Source of the DNA: a candidate division WOR-3 bacterium
GTDB lineage: Bacteria; Hydrothermota; Tepidihabitantia; Tepidihabitantales; DTDR01
DNA length: 47,438 bases
Direction: 5' to 3'
Assembly (NCBI GenBank): GCA_039801885.1
Contig: JBDRVN010000006.1
Location: 1 to 47,438, forward strand
Shown: in pieces, positions 3,208 through 41,357 of the stretch
How the letters are laid out: each line of letters opens with the position of its first letter
Numbering within the stretch: the first letter of the stretch is position 1
Position numbers and translations under genes: made by a program
The notes under the pieces: generated by a model
Database searches by the model: none
Seen by the model: the letters and a program-made list of their open reading frames with translations, nothing else
What the model was told of the DNA's origin: nothing

Positions 3208-4486
3208 TCTATCTGAATATCTTTTATTAAAAAATGGTACATTAATTGATTTAGATAAAAAAGAAAAAAAAGAAGTTGACATACTAATAAAAGAAGGTAG
3301 CATCGAAAAAATTGCAAAAGGGATCGAAAAGAAAGATAAGTTTAAAATTATTGATATTAAAGGTTGCTATATCTTTCCTGGATTAATTGACCTCCATACC
3401 CATTTAAGAATACCAGGTAGAGAAGATGAGGAAACAATCGAAACTGGCACAAAAGCAGCGATTGCCGGTGGTTTCACAAGAATATGCTGTATGCCCAATA
3501 CGGAACCACCATTAGATAACGAGTCTTTAATTACTTATTTGCTAACAGAAAATAAAAAATATAATTATTGCAATTTATATCCCGTGGCTTGTGCGACAAA
3601 AAAAAGAGAAGGAAAAGAACTTTGTGATTACTACCTTTTAAGAAATGCTGGAGCAATTGCTATTTCGGACGATGGCTCACCAATCTCCTCTTCTCAAATT
3701 TTAAGACTGGTTTTAGAATATTCCAAAACTTTTGACCTTCCTTATTTTAGTCATTGTGAAGATAGAGAATTGTCCCAAGGGGTGATTAACGAAGGCTTTT
3801 TATCTTACAAATTAGGATTGAGGGGAATACCTGATATTAGCGAGACTATTTTTGCTTTCCGAGATATTTTAATTGCCAATTATGTAAAAAGCAAAATCCA
3901 TCTTTGTCATATCTCTTCTAAGAAAACTATTGAAGTCCTCCGATTCTTAAAAGAAAGGAATTATGAATTCACTTGCGAGACCGCTCCGCATTATTTCACC
4001 TTGACAGAAAATGATATTCAAAATTACAACACCAATTACAAAGTAAATCCACCTTTAAAAAAAGAAGAAGATAAAGAAGAAATAAAAAAGGCATTAAAAG
4101 AAGGGTTAATTGAAGTTATTGCCTCTGACCACGCACCTCATCTTTCACAAGAAAAAGAACAAGATTTCGAAAATGCTCCTTTTGGAATTATCGGCTTAGA
4201 AACCAGCTTTCTTTTATCTTATGAAGAATTGGTTTTAAAAGGTAATCTTACAATATTTGAATTATTAGAAAAATTTATTACCAATCCAGCAAAGATTTTA
4301 GGAATAGAGATAAATAAAATTAAAGAGGGAAAAGAGGCAGAAATGGTAATCTTCTCACCAAAAGAAAAATTTATTTACCGGGAAGATAAGATTTATTCAA
4401 AAAGCAAGAATACACCCTTTTTAAATAAAGAGTTCAATTGCCGAATTAAAACAGTTATCAAGAATAATAAAATTTTTTATCTTTAA
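3194..4486 (+). CDS. pyrC: Dihydroorotase
   Basis: DLHTHLRIPG, MPNTEP, KVNPPL, ASDHAPH, GIIGLET. Confidence 0.96.
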   Translation: MKIDNLSEYLLLKNGTLIDLDKKEKKEVDILIKEGSIEKIAKGIEKKDKFKIIDIKGCYIFPGLIDLHTHLRIPGREDEETIETGTKAAIAGGFTRICCMPNTEPPLDNESLITYLLTENKKYNYCNLYPVACATKKREGKELCDYYLLRNAGAIAISDDGSPISSSQILRLVLEYSKTFDLPYFSHCEDRELSQGVINEGFLSYKLGLRGIPDISETIFAFRDILIANYVKSKIHLCHISSKKTIEVLRFLKERNYEFTCETAPHYFTLTENDIQNYNTNYKVNPPLKKEEDKEEIKKALKEGLIEVIASDHAPHLSQEKEQDFENAPFGIIGLETSFLLSYEELVLKGNLTIFELLEKFITNPAKILGIEINKIKEGKEAEMVIFSPKEKFIYREDKIYSKSKNTPFLNKEFNCRIKTVIKNNKIFYL

Positions 4487-4487
4487 A

Positions 4488-6887
4488 TTATTTATCCTTC
4501 TCCTCTTCTTTTGCTGAAGTAAACTTTTTATAATTTTCAGCAAGTTCCTTTAATCTCTCTTTTACTTTTTTATGAACTTCCTCGGCTTTCATTCCGGTTA
4601 AAATCTCTATTCCTTCGTCAACACTTTTTATTGCATAAATATGGAAAAGACCTTTTTTTACTGCTTCACAAACCTCTTCTTTAAGCATCAAATCATCGAT
4701 ATTACTGTAAGGAATAATAACTCCCTGCGTACCCGTTAACCCTCTTCTTTTACAAACCTCAAAAAACCCTTCTATTTTTTCATTTACACCTCCGATCGCC
4801 TGAATTTCTCCCTTTTGATTCACTGAGCCGGTTACGGCAATATCTTGTCTTAAAGGAATGGCGCCAATGGAAGATAACAAAGCGAAAAGTTCCGCCGAAG
4901 ATGCTGAATCCCCTTCCACGCCGCCATAACTTTGTTCAAAACAGATAGAAGCACTCATAATAATCGGAAATTCTTGAGCATATTTATCTCGTAAATAGCC
5001 TTGTAAAATTAAAACACCTTTATCATGAATTTTTCCAGAAAGCTGAGCTTCTCTTTCAATATTAATCACACCTTTAGTCCCTACGGAAGTTTTCGCGGTT
5101 ATTCTTGTTGGTCTGCCAAACATATATTCTCCAGTATCATAAATAGAAAGTCCATTGATTTGACCAACAATCGAACCTTGGGTATCAATTAATAATACCC
5201 CTTCATCAATCATCTCCTGAATTTTCTCTTCAATTAATTTAGCTCGGTACTCCCTCATTTCTATTGCTTTTGTTACATGGCGAGAAAGGACTAAATCAGA
5301 ATTATCTTTTTCTGCCCAATAGCTTGCTTCTTTTAATATATCAGTAATAATACCAAAACGGGTAGAAAGTTTATTTTTTCTACCTCCCAATCTTATTCCA
5401 TATTCCACTAATTTAGCAATCGCACTTGCCGAAAAGTGTCTTAAATTTTCTTTTTCCACAATTGTCCGAACAGCATTCGCATACTCCCTTATTGTCTCTT
5501 CTTTTAAATCCATTGTCCAATCAAAATCAGCCCTAACTTTAAATATCTTTTTAAAATCTTCGTCATAGGTTGCTAATAAAGTATATAAAAAAGCATCACC
5601 AATCATTATCACTTTTACATTAATATCTATTGGCTCAGGTTTTAACGCTGTTACTCCAAAAAGAGAATAAGGGTCATAAGCAGTAATATCGACTTTTCTT
5701 GTTCTTAAACATCTTTTCAAAGCATACCAAGTCCCCTCTAAAAGAACATCCAAAGCATTCAAAACTAAAAATCCACCATCAGCTTTTACCAAAGAACCGG
5801 CTTTAATTTTGGTAAAATCTGTCCGCCACTGGCCTCGAGCATCCCAAACCTTTTCAATTGTTCCAAAAAGATTTTTAAAAGTTGGTGTATTTTCAAAAAT
5901 AATTGGTGCCCCAACTTCTTCCGCATTATCAACCAAAAGATTTACCCGAAATTCTAAATAGGGGTCACCGGGCAAAATTTCTTTTATAAAGGGAAAGGGA
6001 GCTTCCTCTTCTTTTTTCTCCTTCTTAAAAATACTTAAATCTTCTAAAATTGCTTCTTCCACCTCTTTTAAATATTCCTTTATTTTCTCGTTTTTTAACT
6101 TTTCTTTAATTTCGTTCAATCTCTCTTCCAAAATCGGTCTGATCGTTTCTTTATCTAAAGAACTTAATTTTTCTCTTGTTTCTTTTTCTAAATTTCTAAT
6201 TTCTTTAAATAAATTATTTAATTCATCAGTTAAATTTTGGGCTTTTTCTTTAATCTTTTCGTAATCCTCACGAGATATCTTTCCTTCTTCAACCGCGAAA
6301 AGTAAATCAGAAATTTTTACCGGATTTCCTTCCATCATATAAACGATCTCCGGTTTCACCATCGGCGCTGGTTGTTGCAAAACAAAACCTTCTTTCGTTA
6401 CCTTCTTTTCAAATTCCAAAACCATTCGGTTACTTTTCTCCTTAAATTCATCAATAATTATCTGTCGCTTTTTTTGATAAGTATCGCTTTCCAAAACTAA
6501 AGGAATATTTCTCTTAAGATACTCAATTAATTCATCCATACTATTTTTAAATATCCTGCCCCAGCCCGGAGGTAGCACAATTAACTTAGGTTGATCAGGA
6601 TTTTTAAAATTATTTACATAACATTTATCTGGCGGCGTCTCCACTGATTTTTCTAATGTTTCTAATAGGTATCTTACGGTCGTTGTTCGGCCAGTACCTA
6701 CCGGTCCCGTTACGAAAATATTATAGCCACTTGCTTTTATCTCCAAACCAAGTTTTAGAGCCTCTATTGCTCGTTTTTGGCCAATAATATCTTGACAACA
6801 GGCCAAATCTTTCGTGGAAGAAAACCCTAATTTTTTTTCATCAATAATAAACCTCAATTTTTCGTAAGGAACTTTATATTTTTCCAT
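4488..6887 (-). CDS. LonC-type Lon-like protease (AAA-like domain, coiled-coil insertion, S16 protease domain)
   Basis: GQKRA, GPVGTGRTT, FEQSYGGVEGDSASSAE (catalytic Ser), GGVNEKIEGFF (catalytic Lys). Confidence 0.92.
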   Translation of the reverse strand: MEKYKVPYEKLRFIIDEKKLGFSSTKDLACCQDIIGQKRAIEALKLGLEIKASGYNIFVTGPVGTGRTTTVRYLLETLEKSVETPPDKCYVNNFKNPDQPKLIVLPPGWGRIFKNSMDELIEYLKRNIPLVLESDTYQKKRQIIIDEFKEKSNRMVLEFEKKVTKEGFVLQQPAPMVKPEIVYMMEGNPVKISDLLFAVEEGKISREDYEKIKEKAQNLTDELNNLFKEIRNLEKETREKLSSLDKETIRPILEERLNEIKEKLKNEKIKEYLKEVEEAILEDLSIFKKEKKEEEAPFPFIKEILPGDPYLEFRVNLLVDNAEEVGAPIIFENTPTFKNLFGTIEKVWDARGQWRTDFTKIKAGSLVKADGGFLVLNALDVLLEGTWYALKRCLRTRKVDITAYDPYSLFGVTALKPEPIDINVKVIMIGDAFLYTLLATYDEDFKKIFKVRADFDWTMDLKEETIREYANAVRTIVEKENLRHFSASAIAKLVEYGIRLGGRKNKLSTRFGIITDILKEASYWAEKDNSDLVLSRHVTKAIEMREYRAKLIEEKIQEMIDEGVLLIDTQGSIVGQINGLSIYDTGEYMFGRPTRITAKTSVGTKGVINIEREAQLSGKIHDKGVLILQGYLRDKYAQEFPIIMSASICFEQSYGGVEGDSASSAELFALLSSIGAIPLRQDIAVTGSVNQKGEIQAIGGVNEKIEGFFEVCKRRGLTGTQGVIIPYSNIDDLMLKEEVCEAVKKGLFHIYAIKSVDEGIEILTGMKAEEVHKKVKERLKELAENYKKFTSAKEEEKDK

Positions 6888-10312: not shown

Positions 10313-12109
10313 TTATCTTTTACTTCCTGCTCGACCACTATGTTTTGGATCGTGTTGGAACATTGGCCAAGGAGTGTTAGCCAATGGTAATCGTTTATAA
10401 CCAACAATCGCAAAAAGATATTCTTCATTAGCAACATATACAATCCCATTTTCTCCTACAACTGGTGAACTTATAAAATCGGCTTGTAATTTTTTAGCCA
10501 AAAAAGAAGGAGTAAGATTTATTGGGAAAGGATGATATACTTCTCCATTAGAAGTGAACGGATTTATTGCAAATAGATCACCTGCATCATTATTAATATA
10601 AAGAACTTTTTCTTCTGTCCCAGCAAGACAAGGAGTTGATTTTATAGACGGATTCTTTTGATAACTGTAAATTTTTGTTAAATTTGGCTCAAAAACTTCA
10701 ATATATCCATCTTCAGTTGCTACAATCACTTTTCCGTCCCAACCGATAACCGGACCACCAATAACCTCGGTAGTGGTATCAGTAAAAGAAGCACTATAAG
10801 TAATTTGACCATCAAAAGAAATTCCATAGATTTTTCCTGCGACAGCGACGTATACTAAATTATTACCAATTGCACCTTGACCAAGAATTGGATCACCGAG
10901 ATAGATCGCCCAAATCAAATTCCCATTAGGGTCTAATTTATAGAAATAGCCACTGTCACTCTCACCGAAGTAGATATTTCCTTGGTCATCCATTATACAG
11001 GAACCATTTATACCTCCTATTGCTTTGAATTTCCACAAAACTTCGCCATTAGCCGTTGAGAGACAATAAAGAGTATCATTCTCAGAGCCCACAAATAATT
11101 TACTGCCGTCGGATGATAATACTGGCGTACCAGTAATTGTTCCTAAACCTATTTCACCACTATCCGGATATACCCATTTCCTATTTATAAGATTAGGATG
11201 GAAAGCATAGATCCTTCCATCAGCACTACCAATATATATCGCTCCATCATCTCCAATTACTGGTGAAGAGGCAAAATCCTCTCCAGAAACAAAGGTCTTC
11301 CCTTGATACTTTAAAGTTCCAGTGCTTGCCTTTATCGCATACAAATTTCCGCTATTATCACCAAAAACTACTAAGGTATCGCCACCATATATAGTAATCG
11401 CTGGAGAACTTACAATATCATCTTCGGCACGGAAGTAAAAAACAATATCACCTGGTCCTAATTCTTTCTTCACTTTGAACTCAATCGGCTCCGAAGTATC
11501 TGACCACACATATTTATTATCTTGAGCAACCACTTTAATTACATAAGTTCCGGTATCAGCATAACTTATTGATTCGGTTACCGCTGTGCCACTTGCTACA
11601 AAACCAGTAATTGTATCTCTACGATCTCCCCAAATAAAGTTATAACGGATACTATCGTTATCAGGATCAGTAGCAGTAGCAGTAAATTTGTAATAAGTAT
11701 TTATTAATCCATAAGAAGGTCCTTGTAAAGTAGGTCGGGAAGGTTTTTGGTTAGCAACCACCTCGATCCTTAAGGGAGAAGACCAACCAGAAATTGCTCC
11801 TTTAACATCTTCGGCTTGAACTTTTAAAGCGTAGGTATCAGCTTCTTCAAAAGTAATAGTTACTTTCGCCATATCACCTGATTTATAATAATTGGTAATT
11901 TCCTTCCCTCCATCCCAAGCGAAGTGATACCGGATACTGTCATTATTTGGATCGGTAGCAACTGCTTTATATTCAGCTTGCGCGCCCACACCAACTCTCG
12001 TCGGTCCAAAAACTTGGGGAACTTCTGGCGGGTTATTTTTCTTCTTACAAGTAATAGAAAAGAACAAAACTAAAAAAATAAAAAAGATGGTTATTTTTTT
12101 ACTCATCAT
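10313..12109 (-). CDS. Lipoprotein with two PKD/Ig-like repeats and a PQQ-like (BamB-type) beta-propeller
   Basis: Hydrophobic signal ending SIT-C; duplicated ATDP.NDSIRY.F.W; SSP/GTP blade motifs; WPMFQHD..HSG; GGAGG SD. Confidence 0.85.
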   Translation of the reverse strand: MMSKKITIFFIFLVLFFSITCKKKNNPPEVPQVFGPTRVGVGAQAEYKAVATDPNNDSIRYHFAWDGGKEITNYYKSGDMAKVTITFEEADTYALKVQAEDVKGAISGWSSPLRIEVVANQKPSRPTLQGPSYGLINTYYKFTATATDPDNDSIRYNFIWGDRRDTITGFVASGTAVTESISYADTGTYVIKVVAQDNKYVWSDTSEPIEFKVKKELGPGDIVFYFRAEDDIVSSPAITIYGGDTLVVFGDNSGNLYAIKASTGTLKYQGKTFVSGEDFASSPVIGDDGAIYIGSADGRIYAFHPNLINRKWVYPDSGEIGLGTITGTPVLSSDGSKLFVGSENDTLYCLSTANGEVLWKFKAIGGINGSCIMDDQGNIYFGESDSGYFYKLDPNGNLIWAIYLGDPILGQGAIGNNLVYVAVAGKIYGISFDGQITYSASFTDTTTEVIGGPVIGWDGKVIVATEDGYIEVFEPNLTKIYSYQKNPSIKSTPCLAGTEEKVLYINNDAGDLFAINPFTSNGEVYHPFPINLTPSFLAKKLQADFISSPVVGENGIVYVANEEYLFAIVGYKRLPLANTPWPMFQHDPKHSGRAGSKR

Positions 12110-21363: not shown

Positions 21364-22782
21364 TTATTTTACTATCAGTTTAATAATACCTTTTTCTTTA
21401 CTTGTCTCTAATACTAAGAAATAAATACCTTTTACTAAATTATTAACTAAGATTTTCAATTTGTGATTACCGGCAGGAAGGTATTGATTGTAAGTTTTTA
21501 ATAAATAGCCTGAATTATTATATAGTTTTAAAACGACATTATCAGAAAGAGCAAGATGGTAATAAATTGTTGTAAAGAAGTTACAAGGATTGGGCAGAGC
21601 TTTCAAAGATGATAAAATTTTATTTTCTTTTTCTTCTTTTATAAAAACTTGTGGATATCCTTGAAAGGCATAAAATATTCCATTCATATGACCAAAATAA
21701 ACACGGTTGCCAGGACCGATTGCCGGTGAAGAAAGGAAACTCTGACTTGAAGAAATTGAACGAGAACAGAGAATTTGACCGTTTGGTGAGACCACATAGA
21801 AATTTCTATCAGAACCAAGATAAATATTTCCTAAGGAATCAATTGCCGGTGCTGAATAACTGCTAAAACCAGAAAGTGACCAACGAATATTACCGGTACG
21901 AGAATCAACACAATAAAGTCTACCGGAAGCATTGATATATACTGTAGAATCATAGGCAATCGCTGGACAACTATAACCAGAAGAAGCAAGATTAGTCTGC
22001 CATTTTAAACTACCGTCAGGTTTGATTGCATAAAGAAGATAATTTGAATAGCCAACACTTATATAAATAACCGAATCATATCCTACTGCCGGTGTGGCAA
22101 AATCTGCTTCGCCAAGAAGATTATAACTCCAAGCAAGAGAGCCGAAAGGATTAAATGCCCAAAGTTTGTTTTGACTTGCCCGAGTAGTGGCAATATAAAT
22201 TCTACCGTCACGACCAATCGCCGGTGAAGAATTCACATCTCCCTCTAAATAAAAAGCCCAAACTAAATTGCCGGCAGGATCTAAGGCATATAGACTCTCT
22301 GAATAACAAGCAAAATATACCTTTCCATCGTTACCAATTACTGGTGAATGACTAATAGAAAGTAAATTATGAGTAGGCCAGGACCATAATATCTCACCAT
22401 TAGAATTAAGTTTTATCAATTTTCTACTTGTCGTCACATAGATATTGCCGCTATCATCTAATGCCGGTGTTGAAAAATAAACTGTTGCTCCCAAGGAAGT
22501 ACGCCACAAAAGTTCACCATTGGAATTTAAACAATATAAATAACCGTCCCGCGCACCAAAAATTATCCTTCCTAAATTATCCACTACTGCTGAACCAGAA
22601 ATTTCAGCACCAACATTATATGTCCAAGCAATTTCCAAAGAATCACCTACAATAAAATTAGAACGTCCAGTTCTTTGAGAATCATAATGATAACAAGCCC
22701 AAGGATGAGTTTGAAAATTTTCACCGAAAAGAACAAAGATTCCCAAAAGAAAGAAAAATATTAAAAACTTTTTAACCTTCAT
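21364..22782 (-). CDS. Secreted PQQ-like beta-propeller protein with T9SS type A-like C-terminal domain
   Basis: Signal peptide; W..Y.YD.QRTG; repeated SSPAIG.DG.IY blades; PNP...LYN.SG...GIYF...KLIV CTD; start moved to ATG 22782 behind GGAGG. Confidence 0.88.
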   Translation of the reverse strand: MKVKKFLIFFFLLGIFVLFGENFQTHPWACYHYDSQRTGRSNFIVGDSLEIAWTYNVGAEISGSAVVDNLGRIIFGARDGYLYCLNSNGELLWRTSLGATVYFSTPALDDSGNIYVTTSRKLIKLNSNGEILWSWPTHNLLSISHSPVIGNDGKVYFACYSESLYALDPAGNLVWAFYLEGDVNSSPAIGRDGRIYIATTRASQNKLWAFNPFGSLAWSYNLLGEADFATPAVGYDSVIYISVGYSNYLLYAIKPDGSLKWQTNLASSGYSCPAIAYDSTVYINASGRLYCVDSRTGNIRWSLSGFSSYSAPAIDSLGNIYLGSDRNFYVVSPNGQILCSRSISSSQSFLSSPAIGPGNRVYFGHMNGIFYAFQGYPQVFIKEEKENKILSSLKALPNPCNFFTTIYYHLALSDNVVLKLYNNSGYLLKTYNQYLPAGNHKLKILVNNLVKGIYFLVLETSKEKGIIKLIVK

Positions 22783-23884
22783 TTTCAACCTCCTTTAAAT
22801 AATTTTTAACTCTTTTAATAACTTCTTTAACTTCTCTCACCTTTAAAAAGGGATACAAAGGTAAACTCAAAACCTCTTTGGAAAATTTTTCTGCCCTTTT
22901 ACATCCAATTATCCTTGAATTATTTTTAAAAATTGGTTGATAATATAATGGATAAGGATAATAAATCTTTGTTTCAATCCCCAATCTCTCTAAATAACTT
23001 TTTAATTTTTTATTATCTTTTACTCTTATTGTGTAAATATTATAAGAATGGATTTTATTACTCTCTTCTTTTGGACAACTTAAAAAAGAACTTAAATTTT
23101 CATTATAGATCTGGGCAAATTCTCTTCTTTTTTCTAATAGAAATTTTATTTTCTTTAATTTTATTCTTAAAACCATCGCTTGAATGGTATCTAAACGGGA
23201 ATTAAATCCAATATCATCAACAAATTCTTTTTTTAAATCGGGATTTCTTAATTCTTTTATTTTCTTATAAAAATAAAAAGATTTTGTCAAACACAAGCCA
23301 CCATCGCCAAAGCAAGATAAATTCTTTGTTGGATAAAAAGAGAAACAACTAATCTCACCAAAAGAACCACAATAATTATTTTTATATTTTGCCCCAAAAC
23401 TTTGGCAACAATCTTCTATTAAAAAAAGTCCGTACCTATTTTTTATATCCATAATCTCTTCCATATCACAAGGAAGCCCAAATAAGTGAACGATTATTAT
23501 TCCCTTTGTCTTTTTAGATATTGCTTTTTTTATCTCTTTTGGCGAAATATTGTAATCTTCTTTGATATCAACAAAAACTGGTTTTGCTTTTACTTTTAAT
23601 ATTGCCAAGGCAGTGGAAATAAAAGAAAAAGAGGTGGTTATTATCTCATCTCCTTCTTTTACCTTTAATGCTTTTAATGCCAAAATCAAGGCATCAGTCC
23701 CGGAATTAACACCTACCGAATAAAAATTATTATTAGAAGAAAAGAATTTAGAAAAGTCCTTTTCAAAAAGTTCTAACTCCTTTCCTAAAATATAATCACC
23801 CTTTTTTAAAAAATTATCTATTTTGAAATCTCTTTTAAAGAATTGATATTCTCTTTTTAAATCAATGAAAGGAATTTTCACCAA
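22772..23884 (-). CDS. DegT/DnrJ/EryC1/StrS PLP-dependent sugar aminotransferase
   Basis: NSGTDAL, VHLFG, IED..Q, SFYPTKNL, NSRLD, LSLP. Confidence 0.95.
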   Translation of the reverse strand: MVKIPFIDLKREYQFFKRDFKIDNFLKKGDYILGKELELFEKDFSKFFSSNNNFYSVGVNSGTDALILALKALKVKEGDEIITTSFSFISTALAILKVKAKPVFVDIKEDYNISPKEIKKAISKKTKGIIIVHLFGLPCDMEEIMDIKNRYGLFLIEDCCQSFGAKYKNNYCGSFGEISCFSFYPTKNLSCFGDGGLCLTKSFYFYKKIKELRNPDLKKEFVDDIGFNSRLDTIQAMVLRIKLKKIKFLLEKRREFAQIYNENLSSFLSCPKEESNKIHSYNIYTIRVKDNKKLKSYLERLGIETKIYYPYPLYYQPIFKNNSRIIGCKRAEKFSKEVLSLPLYPFLKVREVKEVIKRVKNYLKEVENEG

Positions 23885-25127
23885 GTAAGAAATAGACTCC
23901 TTTCTTTAAATAGTTCACTTTTTGACCACTTATGTTATAAAGAAACTTATCTCCTTTTTTATCTCTTAAAATAATAATCTTCTTTATCTTCTTATCTTCG
24001 CTATTTTTCTCTTTGATACCAGAAAAGGGACGACTCTTTAAACAAAGGATTTGATAATTATTCCCATCTTGGTGGCAAACTAAGAGATAACCAAAGTTAT
24101 TATTATCAATAACTATTCCACCACTTGCTGTCCTGCCATCTGCCAAAACTTCCGAATTTATCCAACGATTAGTAAAATTAGAAGAGTGATAGATCATTCG
24201 GGTAGCAATATTACCATTTATTCTTTCCCAAGAGATATGAACTCTATCATCTTTTACAAAAAAGCTTCTCATATCGGCACTATTGGTATCGGTCATCAAC
24301 TCGTAGGGTTCCCAAATTCTTGAATTTGCTGGTCGGTGAAGATAGCAACTCCTTTTTCTTGTTCCCCAACCATCATCACCGGAAGCACAAAGGAAAAGTT
24401 CACCATTCTCTTTACTATAAATTGCTGAATTATAATCATAAAGATTAGCGGTTGTTAAAACTTCGTATTGAAAATTTGTATCACCTAAAAAGGAGTTTTC
24501 TGCGTGATGGATATGATAATCGGGATAATTGCCTCCCCGATAACTAATATGACAAATACCTTCTGGCGAAACTGAGATATAAGGACTGGCTCCTAAACCA
24601 AAATCGCCAATCTCACTATTTCTTATCTGATAGATATTAAAAGAATCTAATTTGCCAATAAAATAATAAAGTTTATAACCACTGCCTTCCAAACTTTTTA
24701 TCCAAACAATATGAGATAGATTATTTCTAAAAGAAATAGTTGGCGAAGCATCCCACAAATTGTCATTAGTTACTCTTATCTTTTGAAAACTACCATAACG
24801 ATTAGTTAAATAATACAATTCATTATAATTAACAATGGGCGAAGTAAAGGCAATATGAACTTTACCATTTGGTTCGCAAGCAATCACACCGTTAGCATTA
24901 GTGGTTTCAGCTAAAAGAATTGGTGTTGCCCAATTAGAATCTGGCTTCTTACAAGAATAAAAAAGATAATATAAATTACCAACCCTTTCGTGCCAGATAG
25001 TATGCAAAGTATTAAAAGAATCAATTACCAAAGACTGCATTGTCAAAGATTTTGGATTACTATTAACAACAATTGTGTCAATATCTATTGTTACCCATTG
25101 ATAAAAAAGAAGAAAAATAATTATCAT
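23862..25127 (-). CDS. Secreted beta-propeller-like protein with shortened CTD
   Basis: Repeats of the type D..G..HI.W/Y....L.Y; tail GIKE...LYNISGQKV..LKKGVYF. Confidence 0.7.
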   Translation of the reverse strand: MIIIFLLFYQWVTIDIDTIVVNSNPKSLTMQSLVIDSFNTLHTIWHERVGNLYYLFYSCKKPDSNWATPILLAETTNANGVIACEPNGKVHIAFTSPIVNYNELYYLTNRYGSFQKIRVTNDNLWDASPTISFRNNLSHIVWIKSLEGSGYKLYYFIGKLDSFNIYQIRNSEIGDFGLGASPYISVSPEGICHISYRGGNYPDYHIHHAENSFLGDTNFQYEVLTTANLYDYNSAIYSKENGELFLCASGDDGWGTRKRSCYLHRPANSRIWEPYELMTDTNSADMRSFFVKDDRVHISWERINGNIATRMIYHSSNFTNRWINSEVLADGRTASGGIVIDNNNFGYLLVCHQDGNNYQILCLKSRPFSGIKEKNSEDKKIKKIIILRDKKGDKFLYNISGQKVNYLKKGVYFLLGENSFH

Positions 25128-25132
25128 AAAAA

Positions 25133-25160
25133 ATTATAATTACCTAATATTGAAAGTCAA
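25133..25160 (-). promoter_or_regulatory. Sigma70 promoter (leaderless) of the 25127 operon
   Basis: TTGACT-16 bp-TATAAT, then 5 nt to ATG. Confidence 0.8.
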
Positions 25161-25334
25161 TAATCAGTTTTTCTCTTATTGTTTTTACTAAAAAGGGCTT
25201 TAAGTTTTAGATTTTAATAACGAGTACTATCTAGGATACTATCATAGGGATAACCCTATACCTACATAAGTCTTTGATTTATAAGAACTTATAAGTATAT
25301 ACCCCCTCCCCCTATCAAAATTAATCTTCTTTTC

Positions 25335-25362
25335 TTGACTTTTTTATATATTTTTATATCAT
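25335..25362 (+). promoter_or_regulatory. Sigma70 promoter (leaderless) of the tandem nitroreductase gene
   Basis: TTGACT-16 bp-TATCAT, then 5 nt to in-frame ATG 25368; the ORF track's TTG start is the -35 box. Confidence 0.75.
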
Positions 25363-25367
25363 TATTT

Positions 25368-26687
25368 ATGATTAATTTTATCTTTATTTCTTTTCTTATC
25401 TTACAAATTGAAACCTTGCCTCCGCCAGTGATTAATAGAAATTCTTTTGAACTTCTCAGTAATAGCCGATATTCTTTCCATTCTGGTTTTAGTAGCAACT
25501 TATCGGACCAAGTTTTAAGTAATATCTTATGGGCAATGGCTAAAGCACCACAGATTGGTTCTTATCGGGAAATATACATTGCCAAACCAAATAACTTATA
25601 TTTATATAATCCGGAAAGCCATACCTTAAATTTGCATCTTACTGGTAATCGACGTTCTAATAGTAATTCTGCTTTTGAGATTGGTGTTGCTACTGAAAGA
25701 TATGAAGAAGCCGGTTTTATTATTCAACTTGGTCTACTTGCTGCTACCAGTTTTTGGGATTCTCTATCTAATGCTGTTTCCTGTCCAATGCAAAGTGCCA
25801 CAAATTATGCGAATAATAACTGGTCACCAATCCATCCAGTTAGACTTGTTAATGTTTATGGTTTCTCTCAAAGAAGGGGAATTGATACAACTAATATTGC
25901 TATCTCTTCTGATTCTTCTTTACCAAGACCGGTAATCTATCAACATGATACTTTTGAAATATTAATAAGAGATTTAAGTTTTGATACGATTTTTTTACCC
26001 TCTCCCCTATCTATTGAAAAAATTTCCCAAATCTTATGGGCAGGATATGGTGTTACACCCCATCTAACTGCCAATAATCGTCGGGGATTAACTGTTCCCA
26101 GTGCCATTGCCAATTATTATTTAACTCAAAAAATCTATCTTGTTAATGAATATGGTGTTTATCGTTATCATAACCGCCTACCACCAGGAACAAATTTAAC
26201 AACTGCTGACCATAGAATTGAAATAATTGTTAATGAAGATCGAAGAAATGCTTTAAGAAATGCTATTCCGAGAATTCCCCAAACGGCACCAGTTTATATT
26301 GTTATCTGTGTTGGCGATACCAGTTCTAATTATCATCTCTTAGAAGCTGGTTTTGTTGGTATCCAAATGTTATTACAGGCAAAATCTTTAAATTTGTCTT
26401 CTTCTTTAACTCTGCCTTTATTACCTAATGAAAGAAATTTAATAAGAGAGGTTCTTTCCTTACCCAGTTCTGATTTTCCAGTAATTATCTTTTCTTGTAG
26501 TGAAAAAATTAGCAGAATAAAAGAAGAGAAGAAAGGAAAGAAGGAAAGTTTTGGGAGATTTAAGATCTATGACTTTTTAGGAAGAAAGATATTAGAAACT
26601 AATAAACCACTTGATACTTCTCGCCTTAAAAAGGGAATTTACTTTGTCTTTTATCAAAATCTTTGGAGAAAAATTGTTGTTGACTAG
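25368..26687 (+). CDS. Exported tandem SagB/ThcOx-like nitroreductase-fold protein with CTD
   Basis: Two copies of LP.P...LS....S.ILWA...Y.Y...EAG...Q..L; TVPSA in the second copy; tail IYDFLGRK...LKKGIYF...KIVV. Confidence 0.78.
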   Translation: MINFIFISFLILQIETLPPPVINRNSFELLSNSRYSFHSGFSSNLSDQVLSNILWAMAKAPQIGSYREIYIAKPNNLYLYNPESHTLNLHLTGNRRSNSNSAFEIGVATERYEEAGFIIQLGLLAATSFWDSLSNAVSCPMQSATNYANNNWSPIHPVRLVNVYGFSQRRGIDTTNIAISSDSSLPRPVIYQHDTFEILIRDLSFDTIFLPSPLSIEKISQILWAGYGVTPHLTANNRRGLTVPSAIANYYLTQKIYLVNEYGVYRYHNRLPPGTNLTTADHRIEIIVNEDRRNALRNAIPRIPQTAPVYIVICVGDTSSNYHLLEAGFVGIQMLLQAKSLNLSSSLTLPLLPNERNLIREVLSLPSSDFPVIIFSCSEKISRIKEEKKGKKESFGRFKIYDFLGRKILETNKPLDTSRLKKGIYFVFYQNLWRKIVVD

Positions 26688-27813
26688 AAAGTATATCCCT
26701 TTCTTTCTTTTTATCTTCTTCTCTTGTGTTCCTTTCGTAAAAAAGGGCAAGATATATGAACCAAATATTCGTGTCTTAATTGCTTTTGAACAAGATACCT
26801 TTTCTTTAAAAGGCTATTTTACTTTAACCCAGAAAGATAAAAAAATTGAAATAAGAGGTGAATTAATTAAAATAAAAGATAACAAGATATTTTTAAAAGA
26901 TTCCCTTTTGTTTGATTTTACTTTTGAGCCGGTTATTTTAACTCCCTATCCTAATACTAATCTCTCTTTTGGAGATAAAATCTATCGGGGATATTTCAAA
27001 ATTGTTTATGATGCTGTTTGGAAGTATAAAAAACCTTGTTTAGTAAATATCTTGCCATTAGAAGAATACCTTTTTTCAGTTGTTGCTTGTGAGATTGGTC
27101 CTATTGATGAGAAAAATTACGAAAGTGCCAAAGCCCAAGCAGTAGCGGCAAGGAGTTATGCACTATTTAGAATACTCCAAAATCAAAGGAAATTTTACGA
27201 TATCTTTGATTCACCTAACTTGGATCAAGCTTACGAAGGTAAAAAAAGAGAAACTTCTTTAACAACAAAAGCGGTAAAAGAGACAAAAGGCGAAGTCTTG
27301 ATGGAAAGTAAAAAAATTTATAAAGCAATGTATCATGCCAACTGTGGCGGTATTCTTTATAATGGCAAAAGGGATTCAGAAAGATATTCTTTATCTAAAA
27401 TGCCTTTTTGTAAAAATAGTAAGAATTATAAATGGGATAAGACCTTAGAAAACAAAGATTTTAGTGAGAGTTTAAAAAGAATAATTAGTTACCAAAAGAA
27501 AAAGCCATTAAGAATTAAAAAGATAAAATTGGAAAGGGAAAGAAAATCCCAAAGAGTTAAAAAAATAAGGTTTTATACTACTGCTGGAATTTTTTATCTA
27601 CCGGGATATAAATTTCGTAATCTCTTTGACTTGAAATCAACTTTATTGGAAGTAAAAATTACCAGAAATAAAATAAAAATTCTCGGTTACGGCTATGGCC
27701 ATGGCAAGGGAATGTGTCAAGATGGAGCAATGGCAATGGCAAGAAAGGGATATAACTATAAAGAAATCCTTTCTCATTATTATCCTAAGAAAAAGATTAA
27801 AAAAATCTATTAA
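26677..27813 (+). CDS. SpoIID/LytB domain lipoprotein (lytic transglycosylase)
   Basis: LEEYL.SVV..E, KAQAVAARSYA, YHANCGG, GYGHGKGMCQ.GA, IL.HYY; FFS-C lipobox; start is one of three TTG codons (26674-26680) after GGAG. Confidence 0.9.
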   Translation: MLTRKYIPFFLFIFFSCVPFVKKGKIYEPNIRVLIAFEQDTFSLKGYFTLTQKDKKIEIRGELIKIKDNKIFLKDSLLFDFTFEPVILTPYPNTNLSFGDKIYRGYFKIVYDAVWKYKKPCLVNILPLEEYLFSVVACEIGPIDEKNYESAKAQAVAARSYALFRILQNQRKFYDIFDSPNLDQAYEGKKRETSLTTKAVKETKGEVLMESKKIYKAMYHANCGGILYNGKRDSERYSLSKMPFCKNSKNYKWDKTLENKDFSESLKRIISYQKKKPLRIKKIKLERERKSQRVKKIRFYTTAGIFYLPGYKFRNLFDLKSTLLEVKITRNKIKILGYGYGHGKGMCQDGAMAMARKGYNYKEILSHYYPKKKIKKIY

Positions 27814-29273
27814 TGAAATTTCTTAAAATTCTTATCTTTCTTCTCTCGGTTATTATTCCTTTATTGACCGCTTTTTACTTTTATCAAAGATTTTTAAATA
27901 CTAGCTCCTCTCTTGATGGATTTTCTCATTTGTATATTGCCAAAAATATTATTCATAATGGTAAATATTCAACAATTAAAAACTTAGGAACAGTTTGGCT
28001 TCCCTTATATCATTTACTTCTTATTCCTTTTGTCTTTTTTGATACATTATATTTTACTGGTTTTTCTGGTACTATTTTAAACATACTCATTTTCCTTTTA
28101 ATTACATATTTTCTTTTTAAACTTCTTCCCTATCCTTATTCTCTTTTTACTTCTCTCCTCTTTTTATTTTATCCTTATTTTTTAGTTTATACCCTTTCAC
28201 CAATGACCGAAATTTTAACAATTTTTCTTTTGATTTTAACTTTCTATTATTTTCTTGAAGATGATTTGGATAAATTAATTCTCGTTGTTATCTTGGGAAC
28301 ATTAACCCGTTATGAATTTTATCCGATTGCCTTTTTCCTATTTTTTTATTTCTTTTTAAAATCAAGTAAAGTGTTTTTTTTCTTTTCCGGTATTATCTCT
28401 TGGCTTATTTGGAATTATCTTTTATACTCTAACCCATTCTATTTTTATAATCATCCAGTTATAAAAGATACCTGTGGAATTTTGCCCTACGCCTTTAATT
28501 TAAAAAATTTGTTGAGTTTTAATATCAGTATCTTTAAAGAACTCTTTGGCTATTTACCAGTTATCTCTTTTTTTAGCTTTTTTTATTTAATTTATAAAAA
28601 ATCTTATAAAATAATCTTACTTTTCCTTCCCTTATTTATCCATTTTTTATTAGAATATTTTAATATTAGCTTAGGTTACTCCCGTTTTTATTTATTATCT
28701 TTTCCATTTTTTATTATTACTCCTTTCCTTTTTCTTAAAAATATTAAAGATAAGCGCTTCAAAACAATTACTATTTTTTTAATCTTTTTGAGCCTCTTTT
28801 CTAACACCGAAATATTTTCTCTTTTTTTTACTGGCAAAAACCATTATCAGAATAAATTTCCTTACGGCCATCACCTTGATATCAACTATCCAATGGTAAA
28901 AGAAAAGATTTTATACTTTCAAAATTTATTTAAAGATATTGATTTGAAAAAGAAAAAGATTTTGATCCCTTCCCGCCAAGAATTTCAAGTATTTTCTTTT
29001 GCTTTAAAAATAAGACCGGAAGATATTTTTGACGCCTATGATGATAAAAAAAACAAGGAGATTATAAAAATAATGAAAGAACCAGAAAAATATTGTGATT
29101 TAATTATTATTGAGAATAACCTTGACGATTTTTCTTTTCGCTTTCATAAATATTTTAAAAACAATTATTATCCAGTGCTTTTCTTTCAAGATAACGAATA
29201 CCAAAAAAAGATCTTGGCTAATTTTTCTTTAATAAAAAACGATGGTAAATACTCAATATATTTGAAAAAATAA
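27813..29273 (+). CDS. Multi-pass membrane protein, GT-C-like glycosyltransferase
   Basis: DG.SH..IA, VWLPL.H, PMTE and LTRYE motifs; many TM segments. Confidence 0.65.
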   Translation: MKFLKILIFLLSVIIPLLTAFYFYQRFLNTSSSLDGFSHLYIAKNIIHNGKYSTIKNLGTVWLPLYHLLLIPFVFFDTLYFTGFSGTILNILIFLLITYFLFKLLPYPYSLFTSLLFLFYPYFLVYTLSPMTEILTIFLLILTFYYFLEDDLDKLILVVILGTLTRYEFYPIAFFLFFYFFLKSSKVFFFFSGIISWLIWNYLLYSNPFYFYNHPVIKDTCGILPYAFNLKNLLSFNISIFKELFGYLPVISFFSFFYLIYKKSYKIILLFLPLFIHFLLEYFNISLGYSRFYLLSFPFFIITPFLFLKNIKDKRFKTITIFLIFLSLFSNTEIFSLFFTGKNHYQNKFPYGHHLDINYPMVKEKILYFQNLFKDIDLKKKKILIPSRQEFQVFSFALKIRPEDIFDAYDDKKNKEIIKIMKEPEKYCDLIIIENNLDDFSFRFHKYFKNNYYPVLFFQDNEYQKKILANFSLIKNDGKYSIYLKK

Positions 29274-29295: not shown

Positions 29296-29907
29296 ATGAT
29301 TTTTCTTGTTTTCTCAATAGTTTTCAATTTGACGATTGCTCGGCTAAAGTATGAAGGTGGCGGTGATTGGTACAATGATCCCGAGATTATTCCCAATTTA
29401 GCAAAAGAGATAAATAGAAGAACAAGTGTAAAAGTAGAAGAGAAGGAAGAAGTAATAACTTTGCTTTCGGAAAATCTTTATCAATATCCTTTTATCTTTA
29501 TGACCGGCCACGGAAATATCAGCTTTTCTGAAAAAGAAGCAAAGAATTTAAGGAATTATTTATTAAATGGTGGCTTTCTATATGCCGACGATGACTACGG
29601 AATGGATTCGACTTTCCGAAGAGAAATTAAAAAAGTATTTCCTGATAAAGAACTTGTGGAAATTCCTATTAACTTTCCCATTTTTCATATCTTTTACTCT
29701 TTTAATAAACTACCAAAAATCCATGAGCATTATGAAGGACCACCAAAGGCTTTCGGAATTTTTCACGAAAAAAGATTAGTTTTATTTTATACCTGGAATA
29801 CCAATATTAGTGACGGTTGGACAGATAGATATAACGATCCACCGGAAAAAAGAGAAGAGGCAATAAGAATGGGAATTAATATCTTTCTTTATTCCTTATC
29901 CCAATAA
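29296..29907 (+). CDS. DUF4159 domain protein
   Basis: ARLKY.GGGDWY, YPF.FMTGHG, GGFL.ADD.YG, LPKIHEH, MG.NI. Confidence 0.88.
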   Translation: MIFLVFSIVFNLTIARLKYEGGGDWYNDPEIIPNLAKEINRRTSVKVEEKEEVITLLSENLYQYPFIFMTGHGNISFSEKEAKNLRNYLLNGGFLYADDDYGMDSTFRREIKKVFPDKELVEIPINFPIFHIFYSFNKLPKIHEHYEGPPKAFGIFHEKRLVLFYTWNTNISDGWTDRYNDPPEKREEAIRMGINIFLYSLSQ

Positions 29908-36884: not shown

Positions 36885-38198
36885 ATGATTAATGTAGAAA
36901 GTATTTGGGAGGAAATTTTAAAATATTTAAAAGATAGGATAAATCCAGACGGTTTTAGCACCTGGATTGAACCAATAAAAGCAAAACTGAATGGCGAAGA
37001 AATAATGGTATTAGAAGTTCCAAACCATTTTTTTGTGGAATGGATAAGCGAACATTATCTCCACATAATAAAAGATGCTGCTAAACAATGTGGAATTTCA
37101 GATATTAAATTTGAGATTATTCCCAAAAAATTTAAATTTGAGCCGGAAACCGAAGAAAAAAAGGTTTTTATCAATTATGGCATAAAAATTCCTCAAAGAT
37201 TTACATTCGATAATTTTGTAGTTGGCGAATGTAATCGTTTCGCCTTTGCTGCTTGTCGCAGAGTTTGTGAGGGTTTAGGTAAATACTATAATCCATTATT
37301 TATTTATGGCGACGTCGGGTTAGGGAAAACCCACCTTATTTGTTCTATTGGGAATTATGTTAAAAAAAATTATCCCTATTATCGTATTTTTTACACATCG
37401 GCTGAAGGTTTTTTTCTTGAGCTAATCCAAGCAATCCAAGAGAATAGTGTTGTTGAGTTTCGTAATAAATACCGTTCTTTGGATCTGCTTTTAATTGATG
37501 ATATTCATTATCTTGTTGGTAAAGAAAGACTTCAGGAAGAACTTTTTCATACTTTAAATTACTTACAATCAAGGGCGGTTCAAGTAGTTTTTACTTCTGA
37601 TCGGCCTCCTAAAGATATCCCAACCTTAGAAGAGAGACTTATCTCTCGTCTTAATCAAGGTCTTGTCTGTGATATTCAACCACCGGATTTAGAAACAAGA
37701 ATTGCGATAATTAATAAAAAAGCCGAAGAGGAAAATTTTTCTATAAAAAAAGATATTATATTATTTTTGGGAGAAAGGATAAGAACAAATATTAGAGAAT
37801 TAGAGGGAGCTTTAAAAAGGGTAATCTTGGCTTCTCAATTAAGAGGAAGGGAATTATCTTTAGAAGAAATTGAATTTTTATTAAAAGATTTATTACAAAA
37901 AAGAAGGGTGATTAACGTAGAGGATATTATCAAAGAAGTAGCAAAGGAATTTAATTTCGACGCAGAAATTTTAAAATCGCCTCAAAGAAATAAAAATATT
38001 TCTTTAGCTAGACAGGTGGCAATGTATTTGTGTCGACGCTATCTTAATATGAGCCTATTAGAAATTGGCTCATATTTTGGAAAAAAGGACCACACTACCG
38101 TACTTTATGCTTGTTGCCGAATTGAGGAATTAAGAAAAAATGATAATAACTTTTCGGAAATACTAATGAGGATAATTAATAAGATAAATAATGTTTAA
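36885..38198 (+). CDS. dnaA: Chromosomal replication initiator DnaA
   Basis: NPLFIYGDVGLGKTHL, LLIDDI, NIRELEGAL, RQVAMYL, DHTTV. Confidence 0.99.
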   Translation: MINVESIWEEILKYLKDRINPDGFSTWIEPIKAKLNGEEIMVLEVPNHFFVEWISEHYLHIIKDAAKQCGISDIKFEIIPKKFKFEPETEEKKVFINYGIKIPQRFTFDNFVVGECNRFAFAACRRVCEGLGKYYNPLFIYGDVGLGKTHLICSIGNYVKKNYPYYRIFYTSAEGFFLELIQAIQENSVVEFRNKYRSLDLLLIDDIHYLVGKERLQEELFHTLNYLQSRAVQVVFTSDRPPKDIPTLEERLISRLNQGLVCDIQPPDLETRIAIINKKAEEENFSIKKDIILFLGERIRTNIRELEGALKRVILASQLRGRELSLEEIEFLLKDLLQKRRVINVEDIIKEVAKEFNFDAEILKSPQRNKNISLARQVAMYLCRRYLNMSLLEIGSYFGKKDHTTVLYACCRIEELRKNDNNFSEILMRIINKINNV

Positions 38199-39881: not shown

Positions 39882-41357
39882 ATGAAGAAGATTTCTTTAT
39901 TAGTTTTAGTTATTTCTTTTATTTTTTGTCTTGACATCTCAGTAAAAAATATCATTCGGCCAACTGGTATTCAAGAACCGGACGTTTATACTCCGCGTGT
40001 CCAAATTCAAAATGAATCTCCAGAGGCAGCAAATGTTTCTGTCTATTTAAAAATTCTTCAATTACCAAATAATAATCAAGTATATCTTGATTCTCAGCAA
40101 GTTACCATTAATGGTAATTCAACCCAATCAATTGATTTTGCTCCTTTTAACGCCCAAGTGGGAATTTATTTAGTGAAATGTTCTTTATATTCTGTCAATG
40201 ACACCAATCCTATTAATGATACATTGTCAAGTAAATTAAGAATTGCAGAGATTCCTTTAAATCAATGGATTTTATGGGACAGTGTTCCTTTGGGTGAAAA
40301 GGGGAAGAAAGTTAAAGATGGTGGAGGAATGTGTGATGGTTCAGTAAGAGGCGATAAGAAAATCTTTTTTATGAAAGGAAATAGGACAAATGAGTTTTAT
40401 TTGTATGATCCAATAATTAATTCCTGGACAAGAAAGTGTTCAATTCCTAATTATTTACTATCTGCTAAATATTTGCCTAAGAAGGGTAGTTGTATTTGTA
40501 AATCTGGTGATTTTATCTACTTGGCAGTCGGTAATAATACCCGGGAGTTTTTGGCATATTCCCTGACTTACGATAGTTGGCAAAGAAAAAGGGAAATTCC
40601 TTTAGGACTTTCTAACAAAAATTTAAAAGGTGGTTCTTCTTTGGCAAAAGGGAAAATTTTAAATAAAGATTATCTATTTCTTATTAAAGGAAGCAGTACA
40701 AGAGAGTTTTATGCCTATGACATTAATAATGATACTTGGATTGAAAGGGCGATGACGCCTTATTTAGAAAAAGAGACAAAGATTAAGAAAGGAAGCTGTC
40801 TTTGTTCGGATGGAAGAAATATCTATCTTTTAAAAGGTGGCATAAATGAATTTTTCTTTTATAATGCCGATTCTGATAAATGGGAACCAAGAAAGAGTAT
40901 GCCCCTTTATAACAAATTAGGAACAAAAAAGAAAGTGAAAGATGGAGCCTTTATGGTTTATGAGCAAGGGCACGATGTTATTTTTGCCTTTAAAGGTGGT
41001 AATACAACTGAATTTTGGGCATATTTTGTTAATGGTGATTCTTGGCATGAATTACCACCTTTACCGCTTGGCCCTTCTAATAAGAAAGTGAAAGCCGGTG
41101 CTTCTCTTTTACTTTTTGCTGGTGGTCTTTTTGCCTTAAAGGGAAATAATACAAATGAAGTCTGGTTTTATAAATATGATTTTCCGTTGCCCTTTATGGA
41201 AATAAAAGAGGGGAGAGGAAAAAACGAAAAAAGGGATAGAAAAAAGACTACCGATTTAAAAATCTTTAATATTGCTGGTCAAAGAGTTGCCTATCTTAAA
41301 AAGGGGATATATTTTACCTTGATAGATAAAAAGATAAAAAAAGTTATTGTAAAATAA
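39882..41357 (+). CDS. Secreted protein with Ig/CARDB-like domain, kelch-like propeller and shortened CTD
   Basis: Signal peptide; DTNP.NDT; six K.G...(K)G..T.EF..Y....W repeats; tail IFNIAGQRV..LKKGIYF...KVIVK. Confidence 0.82.
   Translation: MKKISLLVLVISFIFCLDISVKNIIRPTGIQEPDVYTPRVQIQNESPEAANVSVYLKILQLPNNNQVYLDSQQVTINGNSTQSIDFAPFNAQVGIYLVKCSLYSVNDTNPINDTLSSKLRIAEIPLNQWILWDSVPLGEKGKKVKDGGGMCDGSVRGDKKIFFMKGNRTNEFYLYDPIINSWTRKCSIPNYLLSAKYLPKKGSCICKSGDFIYLAVGNNTREFLAYSLTYDSWQRKREIPLGLSNKNLKGGSSLAKGKILNKDYLFLIKGSSTREFYAYDINNDTWIERAMTPYLEKETKIKKGSCLCSDGRNIYLLKGGINEFFFYNADSDKWEPRKSMPLYNKLGTKKKVKDGAFMVYEQGHDVIFAFKGGNTTEFWAYFVNGDSWHELPPLPLGPSNKKVKAGASLLLFAGGLFALKGNNTNEVWFYKYDFPLPFMEIKEGRGKNEKRDRKKTTDLKIFNIAGQRVAYLKKGIYFTLIDKKIKKVIVK

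Follow-up and report, generated by a model that had tools for sequence, protein, structure and literature searches.

A 47,438-nt stretch of DNA from a candidate division WOR-3 bacterium (contig JBDRVN010000006.1, hereafter the window) carries on its forward strand, at positions 25368–26687 including the stop codon, a gene for a 439-amino acid (aa) protein, P0001, in which two homologous halves, both of predicted nitroreductase fold, are fused in one chain. The chain is almost certainly a tandem pseudo-dimer, in which the N-terminal (N) half retains one part and the C-terminal (C) half the other part of the flavin mononucleotide (FMN) site of dimeric nitroreductases, and this division is conserved across a large family whose members are joined to several kinds of export and anchoring modules. 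Taking the evidence as a whole, we consider it probable, with some reserve, that P0001 is an exported, and probably surface-targeted, single-chain nitroreductase-fold pseudo-dimer of the NADH-oxidase/flavin-reductase type with one composite FMN site. A protein in which one chain mimics a dimer has been described before; what is unusual here is the likely extracellular location.

The open reading frame (ORF) runs from an ATG at position 25368 to a stop codon at 26685–26687. A TTG at 25335 is a possible alternative start that would add 11 residues; the closest database relative, P0002 (95% identical, 439 aa), has a start identical to the ATG one. On direct reading, residues 1–13 (MINFIFISFLILQ, nt 25368–25406) form a hydrophobic N-terminus, a putative Sec signal or signal anchor, which is followed by the N half (residues 14–182, nt 25407–25913), the C half (residues 183–380, nt 25914–26507) and a short tail resembling a C-terminal sorting domain (residues 387–431, nt 26526–26660), all on the forward strand. 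A first-pass annotation of the window, made from its letters and translated ORFs, had quoted a series of strings for two nitroreductase domains, and all of them were found in this translation in the order given, namely LPPP (residues 17–20), SNSRYSFH (31–38), LSDQVLSNILWA (45–56) and EEAGFIIQLGLL (113–124) in the N half, and LPRP (185–188), IRDLSFD (200–206), LSIEKISQILWAGYG (214–228), TVPSA (242–246) and LEAGFVGIQMLL (325–336) in the C half.

As single sequences the two halves are barely similar (BLASTP, 14/33 identities, E 0.006). Profiles made from an alignment of 34 homologues (mean column identity 59%), split at residues 14–182 and 183–380, were matched to each other by hhalign with 95.3% probability (E 2.1e-8, 85 columns), and profiles from an independent 14-sequence set, consisting of the window protein and 13 genome loci, gave 89.4% (E 2e-6, 82 columns). 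The alignable region is the first part of each domain only, from the L-P-x-P start through the LWA helix and the Y-x-Y hairpin to the G-(N/D)-x-R turn. Pfam recognised the C half as PF00881 (residues 209–376, 28.4 bits, above the cut-off of 23.5) and returned no match on the N half; in every case reported among 42 homologues scanned, the best PF00881 stretch also lay in the C half. When the profiles were searched against PDB sequences, the N half found 3hoi (E 2.4e-4) and 3hj9 (E 1.1e-3), the C half found 8cqs (E 1.9e-6) and 3hoi (E 2.8e-6), and with the whole-protein profile 3hj9 matched both halves.

The AlphaFold2 (AF2) model of the full-length chain, built with the 34-homologue alignment, had a predicted local distance difference test score (pLDDT) of 82.2 and a predicted template modelling score (pTM) of 0.78. 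Its top Foldseek match was 3eo7, a 487-residue chain (492 columns, E 9e-12, TM 0.55/0.50), followed by the small nitroreductases 8cqs, 3hoi and 3hj9. The N half modelled alone (pLDDT 79.3) matched 3hoi, 8cqs and 3hj9 at E 3e-8 to 2e-6 (TMq 0.64–0.70). These models predict the alpha+beta nitroreductase fold for each half. Profile comparison, structure prediction and Foldseek agree in this respect, and the earlier claim of two homologous nitroreductase-fold halves in one chain held, including, in the predicted structure, for the N half, on whose fold that claim had been made to depend. Eleven shorter matches, considered as possible single-half or heterodimeric ancestor genes, looked like truncated or frame-shifted fragments of tandem genes and gave no sign of a heterodimeric ancestor.

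By sequence, the best solved relatives of both halves are the Bacteroides FMN nitroreductases 3hoi (BF3017) and 8cqs (BT_0217), together with 3hj9 (Reut_A1228), with which the window protein shares the L-P-x-P domain start, the LWA helix and a short 'EAG' helix region. These are single-domain proteins of about 190–200 residues that keep R-x-S-x-R and APSA in one chain, whereas the window protein consists of two fused halves and splits the two motifs between them; moreover, their crystallised chains, as aligned, have no C-terminal sorting tail. The portion of PMC13171619 consulted mentions BT0217 only in a multi-deletion strain. We propose that the family goes back to a small L-P-x-P nitroreductase domain of the BF3017/BT_0217 type that was duplicated in tandem, with the two halves then diverging reciprocally: the N half would have kept R-x-S-x-H, with a short PSA loop, and the C half would have kept R-R-G-L-T-V-P-S-A, with its R-x-S changed to L-x-Q-D-S.

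In NfsB-type dimers, each flavin site joins the R-x-S of one subunit to the P-S loop of its partner. In the window protein, the N half keeps R34-Y35-S36 (R34-x-S36-x-H38; codons 34–36 at nt 25467–25475), a candidate FMN-phosphate motif whose arginine and serine align with those of ERHSTRE in 3hoi, as well as C139-P140-M141, and has K-A-P-Q-I-G in place of PSA. The C half reads L203-S-F-D206-T at the R-x-S position and keeps R238-R239-G-L-T-V-P244-S245-A246, the PSA loop of which (nt 26097–26105) aligns with APSAM of 3hoi and 8cqs. In HMMER alignments to these two structures, N-half N-S-R34-Y-S36-x-H38 sits on their E-R-x-S-T-R-E and so does C-half L203-x-(Q/F)205-D206-(S/T)207, showing that both the arginine and the serine are replaced in the C half, while C-half R-R-G-L-T-V-P244-S245-A246 aligns with their R-T-A-P-S-A-M. 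The shortened loop of the N half has the family consensus (R/K)-(V/A)-P-x-x-G.

This asymmetry is not a peculiarity of the window protein. Among 270 database relatives, 142 span both halves and were aligned to the core hidden Markov model (HMM); these are referred to below as the tandem homologues, and all residue counts are out of 142. On the N-half side, R34 and S36 are each present in 141, H38 in 138, C139 in 138 and P140 in 140. On the C-half side, S245 is found in 140, A246 in 134 and P244 in 118, with alanine in 22 at the last position, whereas the residues standing in for R-x-S are L203 in 125, Q205 in 101 and D206 in 126. In a diverse set of 25 members, with identities as low as about 35%, the N-half N-S-R-x-S was retained in 24, and in 24 the C-half equivalent has no arginine, P0141 being ambiguous owing to an insertion there. 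The first-pass statement that domain 1 keeps R-x-S and lacks PSA, and domain 2 the reverse, is literally true and extends to the whole family, and the asymmetry is, as judged from the alignment, ancestral to the tandem proteins.

Taken together with the site logic of NfsB-type dimers, the complementary motif losses predict a single composite site of the canonical kind, made of the N-half R-x-S and the C-half PSA loop, and one remodelled pocket. A passage of PMC10404671 describes two symmetrical sites at the interface of a nitroreductase dimer. In the window family one canonical site would be retained, and the second interface pocket would be remodelled yet conserved; that exactly one FMN is bound, at N-half R34/S36 and C-half P244-S245-A246, we regard as an evenly balanced matter. 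A different possibility is that both pockets are functional, one holding FMN and the remodelled one, lined by C-half D194, E197, D206 and F209 and the N-half P61 loop, binding a substrate, a second cofactor or a metal. Indeed, D206 (126), F209 (139), E197 (136), P61 (139) and G64 (127) are conserved like the residues of the canonical side, which would be surprising for a pocket free of selection, and on this evidence the remodelled pocket is probably not a dead relic; position 62 is serine, so that the loop reads P-S, in 58. However, no known ligand motif was recognised there, and the high identity of the family (the mean column identity of 59%) inflates conservation everywhere. We consider two functional pockets improbable, but not negligibly so.

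Export-associated modules accompany the tandem core throughout the family. A hydrophobic N-terminal segment, scored by a simple hydrophobicity heuristic, was present in 136 of the 142 tandem homologues; of the other six, three have twin-arginine translocation (Tat)-like RR motifs, two look N-terminally truncated and one is unclear. C-terminal extensions of at least 40 aa past the core were found in 138, the median extensions being 21 aa at the N-terminus and 103 aa at the C-terminus. The commonest N-terminal junction, (L/F/S)-(A/G)-Q-V-E-S-L-P, looks like a signal-peptidase site after which glutamine becomes the N-terminal residue, as in the Bacteroidota 'Q-rule' for such sites. An RR motif lies near the N-terminus in 14 of the 142, and six of these looked Tat-like by eye (P0127, P0130, P0135, P0137, P0141 and P0151); the WOR-3 members have Sec-type signals, most of them without a twin-arginine motif. 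Tat is the usual route for proteins already loaded with a cofactor, and the Tat-like signals of distant members argue that a cofactor is bound.

Pfam models were run on 42 of the 142 homologues (P0103–P0162, E≤1e-3), with FlgD_ig and/or Por_Secre_tail found in 28, Dockerin_1 in four (two above cut-off) and nothing recognisable in ten. Most scanned relatives carry FlgD_ig above its cut-off, and PF18962 (Por_Secre_tail) exceeds its own in P0123 (37.6 bits) and P0151 (33.1 bits). According to precomputed Pfam assignments, 104 of 120 relatives among the matches listed carry PF13860, PF18962 or PF13585. Single-domain relatives show the same tendency: the N-terminus is of signal, lipoprotein or Tat-like type in 12 of 15 inspected, and RRSxRxF and RTAPSAG are kept. 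The first-pass description of an undescribed exported nitroreductase must be narrowed in this light, for the location is indeed unusual and exported single-domain relatives are nonetheless common. The presence of several unrelated export and anchoring devices on the same module is a strong comparative argument for action outside the cytoplasm, and an extracytoplasmic location of the protein appears very likely from these sequence features. In the proposed scheme, export would proceed via Sec, or Tat in some distant relatives, and the exported protein would next be sorted or anchored by a C-terminal beta-sandwich tail of T9SS (type IX secretion system) type A or FlgD-Ig kind, then acting at the surface as an extracytoplasmic flavin-dependent oxidoreductase.

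Some members have more elaborate architectures. The 1018-aa P0123 combines the tandem module with a Kelch propeller and a Por_Secre_tail, and the distant relatives P0141, P0148, P0149, P0153 and P0158 join it to dockerin type I repeats. The dockerin and Kelch fusions, as read from domain content, hint at incorporation into cellulosome-like surface complexes.

Within the window itself, 4 of the 40 ORFs end in a similar short tail, ...G-(Q/R/N)...L-(K/V)-K-G-(I/V)-Y-F..., including a PQQ-type beta-propeller (21364–22788, minus strand), which at 30.2 bits is the sole one to reach the Por_Secre_tail cut-off, an unassigned 421-aa protein (23862–25127, minus strand) and a Kelch-motif protein (39882–41357, plus strand). 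Since the tail is common to four ORFs and one of them scores above the cut-off, it looks like a genuine sorting signal in this genome, and the pattern suggests a compact signal in use genome-wide. Two PQQ/BamB-like beta-propellers are encoded in the window, at 10313–12109 and 21364–22788, both on the minus strand, one with PKD domains and the other with the T9SS-type tail, and they leave the impression of an organism with many surface-displayed propeller proteins. With a putative N-terminal signal, a functional module and a C-terminal beta-sandwich-like tail, the window protein is laid out like T9SS type A cargo of Bacteroidota; it differs in that its tail is sub-threshold and truncated and its host belongs not to Bacteroidota but to WOR-3, for which a T9SS route is proposed here.

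Several observations weigh against the reading of P0001 as an exported flavoenzyme with one site. First, the N-terminus of the window protein has no basic residue in its n-region and no small residue at −1 (I-L-Q), and its tail stays below threshold with both Por_Secre_tail (22.6 versus 27 bits) and TIGR04183 (18.1 versus 23 bits) and falls about 50 aa short of the length in most relatives, aligning with the final strands of their ~100-aa FlgD_ig-type tail. Of the two features noted at first, the hydrophobic N-terminus is there, in an atypical form without a charged n-region, and the T9SS-like tail is alike in character but falls below both curated cut-offs. None of the 40 window ORFs was recognised as a T9SS component, and a literature search on WOR-3 and T9SS showed, in the titles listed, nothing linking them. 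Second, Sec-type signals imply that the protein crosses the membrane unfolded, so that FMN would have to be acquired outside the cytoplasm, where the usual donor NAD(P)H is not expected to occur. Third, a basic pair helps to hold the FMN phosphate in NfsB-type enzymes, and no conserved basic pair was identified at the C-terminal end of the N half. Fourth, the remodelled pocket is as conserved as the canonical one, as the counts for D206, F209 and P61 show; it may therefore bind something, and conservation alone favours neither one site nor two. Finally, gene context was rejected as a functional clue, the neighbours being variable and mostly housekeeping genes.

Part of this evidence would also fit a surface or periplasmic pseudo-enzyme, in which the fold serves as a scaffold, as a module for binding or capturing flavin or another small molecule, or as an adhesin-like element, with no turnover. 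Sec-type export in WOR-3 and the lack of an expected nicotinamide donor outside the cell point in that direction, as does a pocket devoid of its phosphate-binding motif; the module also comes with dockerin, Kelch and Ig-like tails, a combination frequent among binding modules. For the single-site protein Acg, a passage of PMC11841060 mentions a proposed role in sequestering flavin. On the contrary, the near-invariance of R34, S36 and S245 in the tandem homologues looks like that of a preserved active site, C139-P140, in a strand that should adjoin the flavin if, as we assume, NfsB structures are a guide, is invariant, and the Tat-like signals of distant members suggest cofactor loading before export. 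A pseudo-enzyme is in our judgement unlikely, and we prefer an active flavin-dependent oxidoreductase with a composite site. The roles suggested at first, surface redox chemistry or flavin capture, are putative.

The protein had at first been termed SagB-like. TIGR03605 is indeed its best-scoring NCBIfam catalytic model, at 23.6 bits against a cut-off of 78.4, and the nearest solved relatives by sequence are BF3017 and BT_0217, so that the label was not upheld. A SagB/ThcOx-type azoline dehydrogenase of a ribosomally synthesised and post-translationally modified peptide (RiPP) pathway, with its partner genes elsewhere in the genome, would nonetheless belong to the same superfamily; McbC, BmdC and ThcOx are among the weaker Foldseek matches, and across the LWA...R..PSA...Y.Y region the C half is similar to a domain of SagB type. 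Besides the low score, several findings speak against such an enzyme. No YcaO was found among the 40 window ORFs (E≤0.1; E≤1e-4), as had been noted at the outset, or among 51 neighbour ORFs from 12 related loci, small precursor ORFs not having been searched for. The window protein has export and sorting modules, whereas azoline oxidases of the SagB/ThcOx type are, to our knowledge, cytoplasmic. The 'KYG-R--RY' segment of single-domain SagB-like relatives, presumably holding the Lys-Tyr catalytic motif of thiazole/oxazole-modified microcin (TOMM) dehydrogenases, is missing from both halves, and positions 321 and 322, which may be its equivalent, are variable. In the section of PMC5108345 consulted, ThcOx is dimeric, each chain carrying one FMN, and its second domain is a peptide clamp and not a nitroreductase domain; the second domain of the window protein has the predicted nitroreductase fold. 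We regard this assignment as very improbable.

The novelty of a one-site pseudo-dimer in a single chain, as put forward in the first-pass annotation, did not survive comparison with the literature, since the text seen of PMC10404671 already describes an Acg/FDO subgroup in which the monomer imitates a homodimer and has one site. Members of this subgroup (MsAcg, 2ymv; TyzC) resemble the modelled window protein in having two nitroreductase-like halves in one chain. In the Foldseek search of the full model, 2ymv ranked 18th (397 columns, E 3.6e-5, TMq 0.37, 12% identity), and it gave no PDB sequence match at E up to 10. The absence of sequence kinship and the weak structural match point most likely to an independent duplication, within the BF3017-like branch; the window family would work like Acg but is not a member of its family. 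The roles of Acg, which is DosR-regulated, and of TyzC, a lipid desaturase, are intracellular in the material at hand, and both differ further in their lid insertion and the absence of a sorting tail. The other long-chain comparator, 3eo7 (Ava_2154, a putative nitroreductase of Anabaena variabilis), covers both halves, as its 487 residues aligned over 492 columns indicate, but the PDB profile search, taken to E 10, did not return it, and it is 13% identical in the structural alignment; no sign of export signals was noted in it. For this protein, the excerpt of PMC7538488 consulted shows an FMN site and a Ca2+ ion, and its plant homologues are predicted there to be organellar.

The family comprises 738 matches at E≤1e-3, of about 50–60% identity and mostly from candidate division WOR-3. 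Its members are named in databases 'nitroreductase family protein', 'FlgD immunoglobulin-like domain containing protein' or 'T9SS type A sorting domain-containing protein', and the ESM Atlas returned the family's own clusters only, auto-named FlgD Ig-like/Nitroreductase, mostly WOR-3, with scores of 0.81–0.89. A literature search gave, in the titles listed, nothing on a nitroreductase as T9SS cargo, and a search on periplasmic, extracellular, secreted or exported nitroreductases retrieved plant work only.

Downstream of the tandem gene, on the same strand, lie genes for a putative lipoprotein with a SpoIID/LytB domain (26674–27813; TIGR02669, 172.6 bits; PF08486, 67.6 bits), a hydrophobic, presumably multi-pass membrane protein of 486 aa (27813–29273) and a DUF4159 protein (29296–29907; 214 bits). 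The SpoIID/LytB gene, with TTG codons at 26674–26682, overlaps the stop codon of the tandem gene at 26685–26687, and the ATG of the 486-aa protein overlaps the SpoIID stop (TAATG). The three downstream genes form a tight, same-strand, envelope-related cluster specific to this genome. The overlaps make the operon proposed with the SpoIID lipoprotein plausible here, but when ten neighbour proteins of the window were searched by tblastn (E≤1e-5) in 15 related loci none was found, the SpoIID and 486-aa proteins included, so that this operon says little about function. The 486-aa protein, labelled GT-C-like from its letters, matched nothing in Pfam, NCBIfam or PDB sequences, and that label was not confirmed. 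A promoter-like match is present at 25335–25362; the scan is uninformative, because counts between 25000 and 30100 did not stand out from those of shuffles (promoter-like sites, 27 versus 25.1 ± 4.8; terminator-like sites, one versus 2.2 ± 1.5). In a search for an upstream riboswitch, such as an FMN element, Rfam gave no match of any kind in the whole window at gathering scores or in 24900–25500 at E≤1.

In the related loci, Pfam identified mostly housekeeping genes among the 51 neighbour ORFs. YebC lies downstream in L003, L004 and L009, accompanied in L003 and L009 by RuvC, RuvA and RuvB, and rpsM (ribosomal protein S13) is found in L001 and L002, followed in L002 by rpsD and rpoA; L005 and L008, compared with L003 by ORF layout only and lying outside the Pfam scan, share its layout. 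In L004, a fused RibBA gene for riboflavin synthesis (3,4-dihydroxy-2-butanone 4-phosphate (DHBP) synthase and GTP cyclohydrolase II; 4471–5763, minus strand) is divergent from, and just upstream of, the tandem gene; as it occurs in one of the 12 loci scanned, its position may be due to chance. Elsewhere in the window, dnaA was identified at 36885–38198 on the plus strand (PF00308, PF08299 and PF11638), and near 36 kb a negative GC skew gives way to a positive one; the genome is AT-rich (~30% GC), and its chromosomal replication origin probably lies within the window.

Nitroreductase-fold flavoenzymes have been studied almost entirely as cytoplasmic homodimers using NAD(P)H. At its boldest, and this we put forward tentatively, as a rather doubtful extension, the family would represent a new class of extracellular flavoenzyme, a self-contained, one-site 'portable' nitroreductase with no need of dimerisation, repeatedly coupled to T9SS-type tails in WOR-3, dockerins in cellulosome-like systems, a Kelch propeller and Tat or lipoprotein signals, and doing core redox chemistry at the WOR-3 cell surface, for instance on quinone-like, aromatic or polymer-derived compounds or in a step of extracellular electron transfer. 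Should the protein not bind flavin, it would simply belong to a very large superfamily and be found in an odd place. If it does, the questions would become how a Sec-exported protein acquires FMN, what its electron donor is and which surface substrate it serves in the uncultured WOR-3, and the family, an independent counterpart of Acg, would offer a natural nitroreductase scaffold in a single chain, of possible use in engineering. The existence of a large and conserved family in which fused subunits are combined with several unrelated export and anchoring modules suggests that these proteins have an uncharacterised job outside the cytoplasm.

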